Positions 2,794 to 24,539 of a stretch of DNA of 38,297 bases are shown here, piece after piece. Origin of the DNA: Enterobacteria phage HK620; sequence record NC_002730.1. The stretch is one strand, 5' to 3'. Both the position numbers and the translations under genes were made by a program. The notes beneath the pieces are model-generated. The model had not been told where the DNA came from and did no database searches. It worked only from the letters and a program-made list of their open reading frames with translations. Position 1 is the first letter of the stretch; each line of letters opens with the position of its first letter.

Positions 2794-3510
2794 TCACTCT
2801 CCTTTGATGCGAATGCCAGCGGCGCGGATTGCAGCGATGACTTCAGAAACTTTGTATGCCATTACCGTTTGGTAATCATCGTGAAAATCTGTTCGATGAA
2901 GCATGCTGCTACGTTCTGGGAGCAGTATTTCCCGATCCTCCAGTTCTGCAATGCGCTTCTCTGCGGCTTCCAGCTTCTCGCGCATATCGTCAACGTACTC
3001 GACCAGAGAACCGCCAGCAGGAATTTCGCACTCCTCGACCAGTTGGAAGTAGATATCAGCTGCGGCCCGTGTGTTGCTATGCCTAGCGTCGCCCATCTCA
3101 CCTTCACGAAGAGCATCGCGTTCGGCGGTAAGATTGGCTATTTTGCTGTCTTTGCCTTCCAGCTCAACGCGCAGCCTCCCTACCGTTAGCGCAATTTCCT
3201 CGTTCTCCTGGTCGCGGCGTTTGATGTATTGCTGTTTTCTTTCCAGCTCATCCAGCAGCGCCAAGACGGTAGCAGGATTGGCTGCGGCGATGAATTCAGC
3301 ATTGGCCTGCTGTTCCATTTGGAAATCTTCATCGAAACCGCTTTCTGGGTGCGCTCCTTCAATTCTGCAAATGGGAAGATATCCAACAACTTCACGATGA
3401 ATTAGCGCATCATCAGCATCAAATCTCTCCTCTCCATATTCGAGCGACCACACACCACTCGTTGCTTTCTCTGCCTTTTCACGCAGTGCCTGATAGTCAA
3501 TCTTGCTCAC
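2794..3510 (-). CDS. Ead/Ea22-like family protein
   Basis: 238-aa ORF; N-terminus [22 protein letters not shown] and coiled-coil middle typical of Ea22-like proteins. Confidence 0.7.
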   Translation of the reverse strand: MSKIDYQALREKAEKATSGVWSLEYGEERFDADDALIHREVVGYLPICRIEGAHPESGFDEDFQMEQQANAEFIAAANPATVLALLDELERKQQYIKRRDQENEEIALTVGRLRVELEGKDSKIANLTAERDALREGEMGDARHSNTRAAADIYFQLVEECEIPAGGSLVEYVDDMREKLEAAEKRIAELEDREILLPERSSMLHRTDFHDDYQTVMAYKVSEVIAAIRAAGIRIKGE

Positions 3511-14712: not shown

Positions 14713-14897
14713 ACGCCACAATTCAAACGATACCAGAGCTTCTTATCCAGACACGAGGCAATCAGACCGAAGTGGCGAGGATGCTTTCCTGCGCAAGAGG
14801 AACGGTGCTCAAGTACAACCGAGATAGCAAAGGCGAGCGTCACGTAATAGTTAACGGCGTCCTGATGGTCAAACAGGGCAAGAGGGGAAGACGATGA
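14709..14897 (+). CDS. ninH: NinH-like protein
   Basis: 62 aa; ...GNQTEVARMLSCARGTVLKY... resembles lambda NinH. Confidence 0.75.
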   Translation: MNATIQTIPELLIQTRGNQTEVARMLSCARGTVLKYNRDSKGERHVIVNGVLMVKQGKRGRR

Positions 14898-15517
14898 GAC
14901 TCGAAAGCGTAGCTAAATTTCATTCGCCAAAAAGCCCGATGATGAGCGACTCACCACGGGCCACGGCTTCTGACTCTCTTTCCGGTACTGATGTGATGGC
15001 TGCTATGGGGATGGCGCAATCACAAGCCGGATTTGGAATGGCTGCATTCTGTGGTAAGCACGAACTCAGCCAGAACGACAAACAAAAGGCTATCAACTAT
15101 CTGATGCAATTTGCACACAAGGTATCGGGGAAATACCGTGGTGTGGCAAAGCTCGAAGGAAATACTAAGGCAAAGGTGCTGCAAGTGCTCGCAACATTCG
15201 CTTATGCGGATTATTGCCGTAGTGCCGCGACGCCGGGCGCAAGATGCAGAGATTGTCACGGTACTGGCCGGGCCGTTGATATTGCCAAAACAGAATGGTG
15301 GGGGAGAGTTGTCGAGAAAGAGTGCGGAAGATGCAAAGGCGTCGGCTATTCAAGGATGCCAGCAAGCGCAGCATATCGCGCTGTAACGATGCTAATCCCA
15401 AACCTTACTCAACCCACCTGGTCACGCACTGTTAAGCCGCTGTATGACGCTCTGGTGGTGCAATGCCACAAAGAAGAGTCAATCGCAGACAACATTTTGA
15501 GTGCGGTCACACGTTAG
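14894..15517 (+). CDS. Q: late-gene antiterminator Q (lambda-Q type)
   Basis: 207 aa, essentially the lambda Q sequence as I recall it, including the zinc-finger region CRDCHGTGR...CGRCKGVG. Confidence 0.92.
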   Translation: MRLESVAKFHSPKSPMMSDSPRATASDSLSGTDVMAAMGMAQSQAGFGMAAFCGKHELSQNDKQKAINYLMQFAHKVSGKYRGVAKLEGNTKAKVLQVLATFAYADYCRSAATPGARCRDCHGTGRAVDIAKTEWWGRVVEKECGRCKGVGYSRMPASAAYRAVTMLIPNLTQPTWSRTVKPLYDALVVQCHKEESIADNILSAVTR

Positions 15518-15559
15518 CGGCATGATTGCCACGGATGGCAACATCTTTACGGCATGATA

Positions 15560-15588
15560 TTGACTTTTTGAATAAAGTTGGGTAAATT
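15560..15588 (+). promoter_or_regulatory. late promoter pR-prime (TTGACT-N17-TAAATT) with overlapping Q-utilisation region
   Basis: Hexamers read directly; lambda-like context downstream of Q. Confidence 0.6.
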
Positions 15589-15622
15589 TGACCCAACGAT
15601 GGATAAATGCACTCGTTAAATA

Positions 15623-15653
15623 AAGCCCTGAGTTAATAGCTCGGGGCTTTTTC
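15623..15653 (+). terminator. rho-independent terminator (tR-prime-like) shortly downstream of the late promoter
   Basis: AAGCCCTGAG-loop-CTCGGGGCTT followed by TTTT. Confidence 0.6.
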
Positions 15654-16538
15654 ATTTCTGCAATCCGGTCAGGACTTTCGAGTTAATGCGTGCTGCACGA
15701 CACGTTGACACTCATACGCGAGAGCCCTGAGCCAGATTGAAGGCTATCAGGTAAGAGCATATCGACGCACTGATAGGGCTGGATTGGAAGATCATTCAGA
15801 GACCCGGCAGACAGATGTGTTCTTTCCGATGGTTTTCGTAAGCGACTTTGCGGTTTTTTAGAAACTGATCACAAAGATAAATGCAAACGAAGAAATGTAT
15901 CTGGCCGTAGCTTAACCGCTAAACACCAGTGAGGTATTCCAGTTCCTCATCAACGAATCTGGCGCACTGGCCCGGTGTGATTAATAATGGGCACACAACA
16001 GGTAAGAGCATTAAAGAACTGGCAAAGAGCTTAACGGTCTGCGAAAGCATTTCTTAGTGGCACAACTGGCCGGTACAACTGAGTGCTCTTTCCGGTGTGG
16101 TGAATGCGCAGGCTGATGCGCGCAGGAGAGCTTCGGAAGAACAAGGTGCCTGTATACAAGCCGGAGATCAGCGCCGGCCACCACAGCCAAATCCACCCAG
16201 AGCAAAACCGTTGTTCATCCTTACCATTCCCTCAGTATTTTGGGCTACAACCCTCAGCCCATTTTTTAAAGCGTACTTCCACCAAGAACCAGACCTAACC
16301 AACTCATTGCTGACACTCTGTGGATACGGTTGTCTAGTGCGCTTTAAAAAAGAAAACCCAGCATCAATGGCTGGGCTTCGTGATATGAGCGGCATGTATT
16401 GTTGGCGCAATCCACGCCTGATTTGCTCATGAATGCGGTCACGAACAAACCCGTTACAAATCAACCGTAACCCGGATTTGTTCAAGCGACCATATCCATA
16501 ATTCCTAATTTGAACAGATCCCCTTCTGGGGGTAAGAC

Positions 16539-16862
16539 ATGAAGATGCCAGAAAAAAATGACCTGTTAGCCGCCATTCTCGCGGCAAAGGAACAAGGCAT
16601 CGGGGCAATCCTTGCGTTTGCAATGGCGTACCTTCGCGGCAGATATAATGGCGGTGCGTTTACAAAAACAGTAATCGACGCAACGATGTGCGCCATTATC
16701 GCCTGGTTCATTCGTGACCTTCTCGACTTCGCCGGACTAAGTAGCAATCTCGCTTATATAACGAGCGTGTTTATCGGCTACATCGGTACTGACTCGATTG
16801 GTTCGCTTATCAAACGCTTCGCTGCTAAAAAAGCCGGAGTAGAAGATGGTGGAAATCAATAA
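16539..16862 (+). CDS. S: class I holin (lambda S type) with dual start motif
   Basis: 107 aa, [22 protein letters not shown]..., near-identical to lambda S as recalled. Confidence 0.92.
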
Positions 16863-23654: not shown

Positions 23655-24539
23655 ATGGAAAACGAACTGATCATCGACGGTCAGGTTATTGGCCTGTCTG
23701 AAACACAGGAAAATGCAGAAGAAACCATCATCCAAACAGAGTCACAGCCTGAGAATGAAAGCCAGGATGACAACGGTAAAGAGGTGGCAACTGAGCCTGA
23801 AAAAACCGAAGAGACACCAGAAGATTACGCCTTGCGTATTGGTGATGAAGAAATTCAGCTTAACGCTGACGATGATGATCACATTGACGGGCAACCTGCA
23901 CCGCAATGGGTGAAAGATCTTCGCAAAGGCTTCAAAGAAACACAGAAAGAAAACCGTGAGTTGCGCCGCCAGCTTGAGGAAGCATTAGCCAAGCCTGCGG
24001 AACATCAGCAACCACAACCAGACGCTATTCCACCAAAACCGACTCTTGAGTCGTGTGATTATGACGAACAGGCGTTTGAACAGGCATTGACTGATTGGCA
24101 TGAGAAAAAAGGCCGTGTCGAACAGCAGCAGCAACAAAAACTACGTCAGCAACAGGAATACCAACAGCGTTTCCAGCAAAGGGTAGAAGCGCATAAACAA
24201 CGGGCAGCCAAACTTCCTGTGAAAGATTATCAGGAAATGGAGGCCATTGTTCTTAGTGAGCTACCACCAATTCAGCAGGAAATCATCATTCACTGTGCAG
24301 ACGAAGGCTCTGAACTACTCGCCTATGGCTTAGGTAAGAGCCAGCAATTACGCCAGCGTGTAGCCGCTGAGACAGATCCAATTCGCGCAGCATTCCTCTT
24401 GGGGCAGATTAGCAAACAGGTAAGCCTTGCTCCAAAACCAAAGAAAGCCATCAAGCCAGAGCCGGAAGTACGTGGTGGCGGTGCTGATGCGAAACAAGAC
24501 GAATTCAACAAATTATGCCCCGGCGCAAAAATCGAATAA
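23655..24539 (+). CDS. scaffolding protein
   Basis: 294 aa, highly acidic, Gln-rich, helical; between portal and coat. Confidence 0.8.
   Translation: MENELIIDGQVIGLSETQENAEETIIQTESQPENESQDDNGKEVATEPEKTEETPEDYALRIGDEEIQLNADDDDHIDGQPAPQWVKDLRKGFKETQKENRELRRQLEEALAKPAEHQQPQPDAIPPKPTLESCDYDEQAFEQALTDWHEKKGRVEQQQQQKLRQQQEYQQRFQQRVEAHKQRAAKLPVKDYQEMEAIVLSELPPIQQEIIIHCADEGSELLAYGLGKSQQLRQRVAAETDPIRAAFLLGQISKQVSLAPKPKKAIKPEPEVRGGGADAKQDEFNKLCPGAKIE

Follow-up and report, generated by a model that had tools for sequence, protein, structure and literature searches.

The leader between the antiterminator gene Q and the holin gene S of Enterobacteria phage HK620 (NC_002730.1, whose whole stretch of 38,297 nucleotides (nt) is called the window here) is an array of at least four conserved, covarying structured RNA modules at a tRNA/moron hotspot, rather than the one novel segment that an earlier note on this DNA had supposed. 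One of these, module 1 (15830-15993), belongs by its sequence and folding to a large family of phage RNAs that has gone without annotation. It appears to be a tmRNA-derived, template-only RNA with an antisense arm: a template of the kind found in transfer-messenger RNA (tmRNA) is joined to a 5′ arm complementary to the template region of the host's own tmRNA. Trans-translation by tmRNA and SmpB is a nearly universal bacterial system of ribosome rescue and protein quality control, and an antibiotic target. With moderate confidence we favour a reading in which the leader is an array of structured modules and module 1 docks on the host tmRNA and presents its own template in place of the masked one of the host, or at least inhibits that tmRNA.

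A tmRNA-type template in module 1

Module 1 carries a predicted tmRNA-type template, followed by a helix 5-like hairpin and two pseudoknots:

15871-15882, plus strand: A/U-rich linker of 12 nt, ending in UAAAU, with U at −5 and A at −4 of the resume codon
15883-15915, plus strand: tag reading frame GCA...TAA, without a start codon, encoding ANEEMYLAVA and a stop
15901-15929, plus strand: helix 5-like hairpin, CUGG/CCAG outer and AGC/GCU inner stem, with the stop codon in the loop
15930-15962, plus strand: first H-type pseudoknot, 15930-15934 with 15945-15949, and CCAG 15939-15942 with CUGG 15959-15962
15963-15993, plus strand: second H-type pseudoknot, CGCACU 15963-15968 with GGUGUG 15974-15979, and GGCCC 15969-15973 with GGGC 15989-15992, with the conserved loop AUUAAUAAU

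The elements that define a tmRNA template are found here in order, namely a resume codon GCA that lacks a start codon and follows UAAAU, a short, hydrophobic, Ala-rich degron tag, and a stop. Across the family, UAAAUGCAAACGA is invariant in all members and the A/U linker measures 12-17 nt. The tag frame has 10 codons and a stop in 33 of 34 members, the divergent member L026 having 13 codons (ANDDSFEVARLAA; L numbers are our handles for loci). Its 21 nucleotide variants give 13 peptides, which fit the pattern A-N-[DE]-polar-x-[FYVM]-[LM]-x-[AV]-A (besides that of the window, ANDNVFLAVA of Felix-like phages, ANDNTFLAVA, ANDDVVLMAA, ANDDLMLMAA, ANDEQFLAVA, ANDDLMMVAA of P1 and more). Variation is highest at third codon positions (codons 3, 4, 8, 9 and 10), all three stops (TAA, TAG, TGA) occur, at a fixed position, and the other two reading frames have erratic lengths; the substitution pattern of the tag frame is of the coding type. 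The peptide pattern is like that of the enterobacterial ssrA tag, ANDENYALAA, in which SspB binds the N-terminal part and ClpX the C-terminal LAA.

Three Rfam models (tmRNA_permuted, alpha_tmRNA and tmRNA) match the template region, never above threshold, both in the window and in each of the four loci scanned; tmRNA_permuted scores highest, in phage IME11 (33 bits, E 1e-4). A search with the UAAAUGCAAACGA 14-mer brings up genuine tmRNAs of viral contigs that are permuted according to ARAGORN, and the resume context AUAAAUGCAAACGA is common to the permuted tmRNAs of IMG/VR and to the template-only family of phages. The IMG/VR viral contigs with such ARAGORN calls are L044, L012, L016, L047, L088, L010 and L092, and their tags include ANDNAFLMAA, ANESVYRLAA, ANDERFLMAA and others.

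Covariation of the fold and absence of a tRNA-like domain

As in tmRNA, a helix 5 holding the stop and pseudoknots follow the template on its 3′ side; tmRNA usually has three such pseudoknots, and module 1 has two. A plain MAFFT alignment of 19 members gave 88.4% of cells paired, against 36-43% when the partners were slid, and 16 pairs with double changes. In a model-based alignment of 34 members, 92.9% of cells were paired (35-43% with partners slid) and 20 of the 27 pairs showed compensatory changes, amounting to 116 compensatory cells against at most 21 in the slid controls; none of 500 shuffles reached any of the observed measures. Helix 1, the helix 5-like hairpin, was 99.2% paired with three covarying pairs. 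Helices 3 and 4, of the first pseudoknot, were 99.4% and 93.9% paired, with three and four pairs carrying double changes, and helices 5 and 6, of the second, were 98.0% and 81.8% paired, with four and five covarying pairs. Two pseudoknot helices had been left outside the covariance model, and because these also pair (93.9% and 98.0%) and covary (four pairs each), the covariation is not an artefact of an alignment made to fit the structure. The earlier guess that this leader might hold a structured RNA is borne out by the analysis of the 34 sequences, and the accompanying suggestion of an insertion scar is contradicted by the same covariation.

A tRNA-like domain was sought in several ways. ARAGORN reports no tmRNA for the window or for any of the five loci that were scanned first, nothing like such a domain lies 3′ of the second pseudoknot, and the Rfam tmRNA models align to the template region only. 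The idea that the domain is hidden in one of the flanking modules, 2 or 3 (see below), was rejected after we examined their tRNA-like hints. Module 2 has a T-arm beside the 3′ strand in some copies, and UCCA/UCCG behind what may be a stem of 7 bp, AAGAGCA/UGCUCUU; module 3 has a T-like hairpin beside the closing stem, ending in CACCA. There was no G3·U70 and no proper acceptor geometry, and neither feature occurs in all the phages. For the counterpart of pseudoknot 1 (PK1) and helix 2, no consistent covarying fold of the 5′ region emerged, only a 3-bp helix being found. Our family model R1 gave no match to E. coli ssrA at E ≤ 10 or to Pasteurellaceae ssrA loci at E ≤ 0.01.

Complementarity of the 5′ arm to host tmRNA

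Because the search for a consensus fold of the 5′ domain gave none, we compared this domain with the host tmRNA. Judged by its complementarity, the 5′ arm is antisense to the template region of that RNA, reaching from the 3′ half of PK1 through the A-rich linker and the resume codon to the sixth codon of the tag:

15830-15870, plus strand: antisense arm, complementary to E. coli tmRNA nt 57-106
15830-15839, plus strand: block I of the arm, UGGUUUUCGU, opposite tmRNA nt 97-106; written as (UA)GUUUUCGU(C), opposite nt 96-106 (tag codons GAC GAA AAC UA)
15842-15846, plus strand: arm block GCGAC, opposite tmRNA GUCGC, nt 87-91, including the resume nucleotide G90
15847-15860, plus strand: arm block UUUGCGGUUUUUUA (UUUGCGG and a U-run), opposite tmRNA UAAAAAGCCGCAAA, nt 68-81
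15865-15870, plus strand: arm block CUGAUC (CUGACC in most other members), opposite tmRNA GGUUGG, nt 57-62

The duplex of window 15826-15873 with tmRNA nt 54-109 was calculated by RNAduplex at −43 kcal/mol, compared with −29.7 ± 3.6 kcal/mol for shuffles, and the main subfamilies reach −39 to −50 kcal/mol (z −2.8 to −5.5; best relative −49.5). When the arm was compared with the minus strand of ssrA by blastn-short, the window gave two blocks of 13/14 and 8/8, L034 and L074 gave a gapped alignment to ssrA nt 68-106 with 32/41 identities (E 8.7e-6), and L024, L075 and the Felix member gave E values of 1e-5, 3e-5 and 0.011; the plus strand of ssrA yielded 6-7-mers only, at E of about 1 or worse. 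GUUUUCG in the arm has a weak likeness to the GGUUUCGAC motif, for which the antisense match to CGAAAAC is the better explanation (E 9e-6 versus sense 6-mers only). Cofolding of the full-length RNAs favoured the hybrid in four of the five members tested, by 11.8 (window), 16.8, 14.1 and 4.7 kcal/mol.

In the main subfamilies the complementarity spans nt 57/68-106. The divergent ones, in which it spans nt 80-106, reach the same target in tmRNA with different sequences. Indeed, the divergent L042 (GCGGCUGUUUUU), L049 (GCGAUUAUUUU) and L131 (GCGACUGUUU) all pair contiguously with AAAA(A)UAGUCGC. A perfect complement of 10-12 nt to GAC GAA AAC UA is present in most subfamilies and is shorter in one subfamily and in L049.

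Does the arm follow the host? All 26 distinct arms of other members, taken from phages of E. coli, Klebsiella and Salmonella, from E. coli prophages and plasmids and from metagenome contigs, are predicted to bind E. coli tmRNA (−23.6 to −49.7 kcal/mol) better than Haemophilus parainfluenzae tmRNA and better than their own linker and template. The host codons D-E-N, which are the target of block I, occur in none of the 13 phage tags. For L026 the order is reversed, with −25.2 kcal/mol for Haemophilus, −18.7 for E. coli and −12.7 for itself. In block I it has AUUGUUCGUC, exactly complementary to GACGAACAAU, a sequence that a scan of reference genomes found in Pasteurellaceae tmRNAs (tag ANDEQYALAA), and its antisense alignment to Pasteurellaceae tmRNA has 24/29 identities (E 1.9e-4); its nearest relative, from an Erwinia phage, has the enteric form UAGUUUUCGU. 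The contig (L026/L072) is N4-like and carries module 1 directly after a tRNA-Arg. By DNA similarity it belongs to an N4-like phage, with no close relative, and the sibling contig L072 carries a 7000000-series sample number, which we take to be that of a human-microbiome sample. A search of the neighbourhoods of Pasteurellaceae ssrA with the family model gave no match.

An unannotated RNA family in phages, prophages and plasmids

By megablast, positions 15813-16185 are 80-93% identical to DNA of unrelated phages, nearly all of it unannotated there. With a more sensitive search, 754 phage records matched the core (about 15842-15995), and the sites are almost all unannotated among the matches listed. 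The carriers comprise Vi01-like Ackermannviridae, Felixounavirus, N4-like Gamaleyavirus, T1-like Klebsiella phages, swi2, P1 and lambdoid phages, and the identity of module 1 across these unrelated families is 70-93%. Of 5426 complete E. coli genomes, 350 carry it as well, at 141 places on chromosomes and 219 on plasmids, and PGAP has left these sites with almost no annotation. In a Felix-like phage and in Erwinia phage phiEa21-4 the module lies within tRNA arrays; in the P1 ban operon, swi2, Vi01, IME11 and an SSU5-like plasmid it lies upstream of tRNAs; and in an E. coli O26 prophage it sits, as in the window, between Q and holin. The phiEa21-4 member (L253, about 355-545; record 24053-24243) lies between tRNA-Arg and tRNA-Leu, encodes the tag ANDAQFLAVA and has its own promoter, TTGACA-17-TAATCT.

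Rfam, genome annotations and the literature were searched, the last with incomplete coverage, and gave no description of this RNA family; within the same limit, the tag peptide strings appeared in no paper. A 2025 review of phage small RNAs leaves tmRNA unmentioned. A conserved RNA gene is thus left unannotated in over 750 genomes of phages, among them P1 and relatives of Felix O1, Vi01, N4 and T1, and in some 350 complete genomes of E. coli.

In swi2, ZX4 and the Felix-like TP1, near-consensus promoters (TTGACA-17-TAGATT or TATAGT, 10-11 of 12 matches) end 6-8 nt before the conserved AGAUAGUUUUCG. From the promoter positions the RNA would start about 50-57 nt before the resume codon, which leaves no room for an acceptor strand, helix 2 and PK1. 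The 5′ end of the RNA is (AGAU)AGUUUUCG, upstream of which there is a promoter, a tRNA or a module 2 hairpin. In swi2, one promoter is followed by module 1, module 2, module 3 and tRNA-Met and then by a terminator. Because it has its own promoter in lytic phages, module 1 looks like a trans-acting RNA gene and not like a cis-acting leader. The promoter scan found none of its own before module 1 in the window; there, the RNA would be made only from the late promoter pR′ after Q antitermination, and would be freed from the late transcript at the flanking hairpins, modules 2A and 2B.

A possible template swap on host tmRNA

We speculate that the arm would anneal to host tmRNA where PK1 and the host template normally sit, and would thereby mask the host tag. 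In such a duplex the phage RNA would exit, in its 3′ direction, at host nt 57-68, where PK1 lies beside helix 2, and 12-17 unpaired, A/U-rich nt would then lead to the phage resume codon, at a similar distance from the tRNA-like domain; in E. coli tmRNA, 11 nt lie between PK1 and G90. The host resume codon and its UA at −5/−4 would be sequestered while the phage supplies its own, and a chimeric two-piece tmRNA with the host tRNA-like domain and the phage template would append the phage-encoded tag. The minimum effect would be antisense inhibition of host trans-translation. Among these outcomes we favour the template swap because it is the simplest reading that uses every conserved feature, and we put forward only tentatively the full form of it, in which a coding piece encoded by phages of enteric, and probably of other, bacteria would turn the one-piece tmRNA of the host into a chimeric two-piece one, such that every trans-translation event adds a tag chosen by the phage.

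Several points speak against this proposal. The case is computational throughout, for the RNA, the duplex and the tagged protein alike. The antisense match of the window is weaker than those of its relatives (E 0.005 and 0.26 for its two blocks). Generic duplex-energy scans are noisy, an unrelated window of the leader having reached −37.8 kcal/mol, and on its own the RNAduplex scan of leader windows against tmRNA was too noisy to rely on. For the window, a lenient Smith-Waterman score of the pairing gave only p ~0.05, and for the AU-rich Felix, L042, L087 and L049 members it was not significant; being poorly discriminating, it was replaced by the BLAST comparison of the arm with both ssrA strands. 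For L026, a metagenomic N4-like contig, the Pasteurellaceae host is one that we infer. RNase III might cut the 40-bp intermolecular duplex, which would favour plain inactivation. The swap further demands that the ribosome load a template which is tethered by base pairing alone, in place of PK1, and what a phage would gain from exchanging a degron for a similar one is not obvious.

The main rival explanation, which we consider rather unlikely, is a plain antisense inhibitor that blocks or destroys tmRNA (e.g. through RNase III), so that tagging is switched off and ribosomes are rescued by ArfA/ArfB without degradation tags; the tmRNA-like body would remain untranslated and would only aid co-localisation with the partners of tmRNA. 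The antisense arm and its host tracking fit this explanation, antisense oligonucleotides alone block trans-translation in vitro, reducing it by more than 95% (PMC7038980), and the mini-tmRNA of mycobacteriophage DS6A, which consists of a tRNA-like domain only and inhibits tmRNA, offers a precedent for phage interference (PMC4131195). It does not explain, however, why frame, length, stop and degron chemistry of the tag are kept through 21 variants with a coding-type pattern, nor why the UA at −5/−4 and a linker of 12-17 nt are conserved. A protein decoy, by which a tmRNA-derived fragment titrates S1, RNase R and possibly SmpB, would account for the well-supported tmRNA-like template and pseudoknots, and the arm would then be an incidental relic of an inverted ssrA duplication; it does resemble the reverse complement of ssrA nt 68-106 with a 5-nt deletion, as an inverted duplication leaves. 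Yet a relic would decay, whereas divergent subfamilies use different sequences to stay complementary to one and the same site of tmRNA, the arm is a far better fit to host tmRNA than to its own template, and L026 matches the tmRNA of another host family, all of which makes the decoy improbable.

The remaining alternatives dispense with tmRNA as a target. If module 1 were a cis-acting late leader, it would act on the lysis transcript (S, R, Rz), modulating how stable it is or how it is processed or translated, and have no target in trans. Its promoterless position in the pR′ leader, in the window and in about 140 E. coli chromosomal places (of which the O26 prophage was checked), and the conservation of 16436-16538 with lambda up to the S start are in line with this, but the same RNA is found far from lysis genes, in tRNA arrays of lytic phages (with its own promoter) and in the P1 ban operon, and lambda is without module 1, so that we regard this role as very improbable. 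A non-functional remnant or insertion scar of a decayed tRNA/tmRNA island would suit the tRNA/moron hotspot and modules 2 and 3, which have tRNA-like traits and are not called as tRNAs; it is hardly credible, being already contradicted by the covariation, and together with the 70-93% identity across unrelated phage families, the kept frame and the promoters of its own this marks the DNA as something other than a mere decayed remnant. Just as little credence can be given to a small-protein gene starting at the AUG inside the invariant AAAUGCAAACGA (MQTKKCIWP in the window). This AUG is present in all members, but the reading frame has a length of 4, 6, 7, 8 or 12 codons, its conservation ends at MQT, it has no Shine-Dalgarno sequence, and genuine tmRNAs carry the same AUG.

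Relation to known systems and significance

With tmRNA (SsrA; RF00023, clan CL00001), module 1 shares the resume context (U−5, A−4, GCA AAC GA...), a tag of 10 codons of the type ANDxxxxLAA that lacks a start, a helix 5-like hairpin with the stop in its loop and the H-type pseudoknots 3′ of the template. Unlike tmRNA it lacks acceptor stem, T-arm, CCA and PK1, has two pseudoknots only, measures about 165 nt versus about 360 nt, and has a 5′ end antisense to host tmRNA. Standard tmRNA finders and Rfam thresholds miss it, and R1 in turn misses one-piece tmRNAs. In two-piece (permuted) tmRNAs, known from alpha- and beta-proteobacteria, cyanobacteria and some marine phages, a coding piece works non-covalently with a separate acceptor piece, and the closest sequence relatives of the module 1 template are the permuted tmRNAs called by ARAGORN. 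Here, in contrast, no acceptor piece is encoded upstream, and module 1 has no 5′ acceptor strand (GGGG...), D-loop motif or helix 2 strand; the proposed partner is the intact one-piece tmRNA of the host, held by an antisense duplex rather than by acceptor and P2 helices. As the tRNA-like domain is absent, we file module 1 neither as a tmRNA nor as a canonical two-piece coding piece, although it would in part function like each of them.

The DS6A RNA is likewise a phage-encoded partial tmRNA and forms the mirror image, a tRNA-like domain without a template, while module 1 is a template without a tRNA-like domain, plus an antisense arm. The authors of the tmRNA database describe the DS6A RNA as inhibiting host tmRNA, perhaps by titrating SmpB, and the phage tmRNAs in their papers are those of mycobacteriophages, Bacillus phage G and DS6A with its tRNA-like domain only, with no template-only form (PMC4131195, PMC11915505). 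AgvB and AsxR, from prophages of enterohaemorrhagic E. coli, also lie between Q/PR′ and the lysis genes and pair with host non-coding RNA; these are Hfq-bound RNAs of about 60 nt with terminators, encoded on the opposite strand, that mimic the mRNA targets of GcvB or FnrS (PMC4104026), whereas module 1 is on the strand of the late transcript, is about 165 nt long and highly structured, and has tmRNA as its putative target.

Taken together, our analysis suggests that phages block or reprogram ribosome rescue. If the proposal is true, phages manipulate trans-translation directly, by RNA pairing with the tmRNA template and its replacement, and a fourth architecture, template-only with an antisense arm, would stand beside the one-piece, two-piece and tRNA-like-domain-only forms and provide a natural blueprint for tag reprogramming in trans. 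Such an RNA would then be carried by P1, Felix O1-like, Vi01-like and Klebsiella phages and by about 6% of complete E. coli genomes. A confirmed template swap would make module 1 categorically new, as the first natural replacement of a tmRNA template in trans and a new class of host-takeover RNA.

The Q-S leader and its other modules

Around module 1 the leader contains the following elements:

15560-15588, plus strand: late promoter pR′ with qut, TTGACT-17-TAAATT (sigma-70 promoter scan, 9 of 12 matches)
15622-15658, plus strand: intrinsic terminator tR′, 13-bp hairpin and U tract (terminator scan, called at 15622-15650)
15660-15743, plus strand: segment A, homologous to the leader preceding tRNA-Ile/tRNA-Arg in other lambdoid phages
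15744-15832, plus strand: module 2A, a diverged long hairpin copy, CTATCAGGTAAGAGCA ... TGTTCTTTCCGATGG, putative processing or boundary element
15994-16099, plus strand: module 2B, a long hairpin, CACAAC-A-GGUAAGAGCA ... UGCUCUUUCC-GGUGUG
16097-16184, plus strand: module 3, three helices in a tRNA-like topology, GUGGUGAAUGCGCAGGCUGAUGCGC ... GCCGGAGAUCAGCGCCGGCCACCAC
16346-16379, minus strand: intrinsic terminator, GAAGCCCAGCCAUUGAUGCUGGGUUUUCUUUUUU (terminator scan), the element possibly reaching about 16440
16436-16538, plus strand: S upstream region collinear with lambda, with the CGGTCACGAACAAAC...GGATTTGTTC hairpin and a CCCC/GGGG stem-loop with the Shine-Dalgarno sequence before the S starts

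The order of lambda-like Q, late promoter, early terminator and S that had been read from the sequence stands. Q (14894-15517) matches the Pfam family Antiterm Q at 192 bits and is an antiterminator of the lambda type, and S (16539-16862) is a lambda-family holin (Pfam Phage_holin_3_1); promoter and terminator are found by the scans, and the GenBank record JQ086377 (phage HK633, 100% identical over 15518-16538) labels the promoter as 'similar to lambda PR' with 2bp mismatch' and adds a Qut site. The transcript from pR′ to tR′ (window 15595-15655) would be only about 60 nt long, and the spacing from pR′ to module 2 in lambda is far longer. In Shiga toxin (Stx) phages, short pR′ transcripts act as regulatory small RNAs (StxS).

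Between the terminator and S there are about 880 bp without a credible open reading frame, in agreement with the earlier description of a gene-free leader of about 0.9 kb. The longest frames within 15651-16538 have 111 amino acids (aa) (plus strand, GTG start), 64 aa (plus) and 151 aa (minus); none of the three has a Pfam match, and JQ086377 annotates no gene in the leader; a protein-coding reading was rejected on these grounds. A tRNA or tmRNA gene in the leader was likewise rejected: ARAGORN finds 0 tRNA or tmRNA genes in the whole window, the Rfam tRNA model has no match in the leader, and the Rfam matches obtained are all below threshold.

In the alignment of the window with lambda, positions 15655-15993 have no counterpart in lambda and the first lambda-like base is 15994, at CACAACAGGTAAGAGCATT, which in lambda sits slightly downstream of the annotated orf-64, in the Q-S leader. 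This confirms the extra proximal segment and its boundary, placed near 15990 beforehand; from tR′ to S, the leader is collinear with lambda only in part. The likeness of the distal part to lambda was only partly correct. It holds from 15994 on, and the collinearity past this point is patchy (strong at 15994-16012, 16083-16105 and 16436-16538, present in parts of 16160-16190, weak in the rest) and includes two structured modules. In the lambda late leader, module 2B, module 3 and the final 100 nt ahead of S are collinear with the window, and module 1, module 2A and segment A are absent. Part of this long-unexplained leader can thereby be reread as two members of conserved families of RNA modules. 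The best-conserved block of the alignment, 16436-16538, presumably corresponds to the sdi-type control of the dual S starts of lambda.

Segment A is about 78% identical to Klebsiella phage DNA. In RothD it sits between Q and holin, and its match there stops exactly at the start of tRNA-Ile, tRNA-Ile and tRNA-Arg being followed by the holin. The window places non-coding modules where RothD-type phages have tRNAs, and this homology sustains the earlier view of the site as a tRNA/moron hotspot. The strong minus-strand terminator at 16346-16379 is a candidate 3′ end of a convergent small RNA; convergent small RNAs of the EcOnc/AgvB class are known at the PR′ moron site (Tree et al. 2014, PMC4104026).

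Module 2 has the family form CACAAC-A-GGUAAGAGCA ... UGCUCUUUCC-GUUGUG and was analysed in 30 unique copies, module 2A being represented by the near-identical copy of L056; all copies lie on the strand of module 1 where module 1 is present. Outside the window it occurs in lambda (L126, 988-1063), P1 (L005, 3105-3191 and 3607-3685), L131 (3445-3533) and SSU5-like plasmids. Compensatory changes include AAGCUGC/GCAGCUU and AAUGACA/UGUCAUU, the bulged A is invariant and the U·U mismatch nearly so. As GU/UG pairs outnumber AC/CA pairs 16 to 2, selection would act on RNA rather than on DNA, and this asymmetry together with the common strand disfavours the terminal inverted repeats of a miniature inverted-repeat transposable element. 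Its interior is variable and sometimes holds a tRNA T-arm, which the two copies of the window lack, and copies are interspersed among the tRNAs of phage arrays.

Module 3 consists of a closing stem GUGGUG...CACCAC, a GCGCA/UGCGC hairpin with the loop GGCUGA and a GCCGG/CCGGC hairpin with the T-loop-like AGUUCAGCA; in 15 unique copies, the closing stem and both hairpins show compensatory changes. Other copies are found in P1 (L005, 3422-3517), L131 (3661-3756) and IME11 (L003, 2765-2888), and a reduced version in lambda. It is not called as a tRNA, and a hammerhead or other ribozyme, considered for its CUGAUG box, was rejected after Rfam gave no match even at E ≤ 10. We interpret modules 2 and 3 as putative processing or boundary elements of the tRNA-array type and as portable recombination junctions, which would explain the movement of the block between unrelated phages.

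Two observations were made at related loci. In IME11 (L003), a T-arm GGTTCGAGTCC with an acceptor-like strand and ACCA lies at about 2960-3025 and a second T-arm, GGTTCGAATCC, at about 3070-3115, neither being in the ARAGORN output or the annotation of the record. In P1 (L005, 3074-3643; AF234173, 69153-69722), the minus-strand coding sequences plp ('putative lipoprotein') and upl ('unknown protein function') overlie plus-strand modules 2 and 3, and these two gene calls may be artefacts over non-coding RNA modules.

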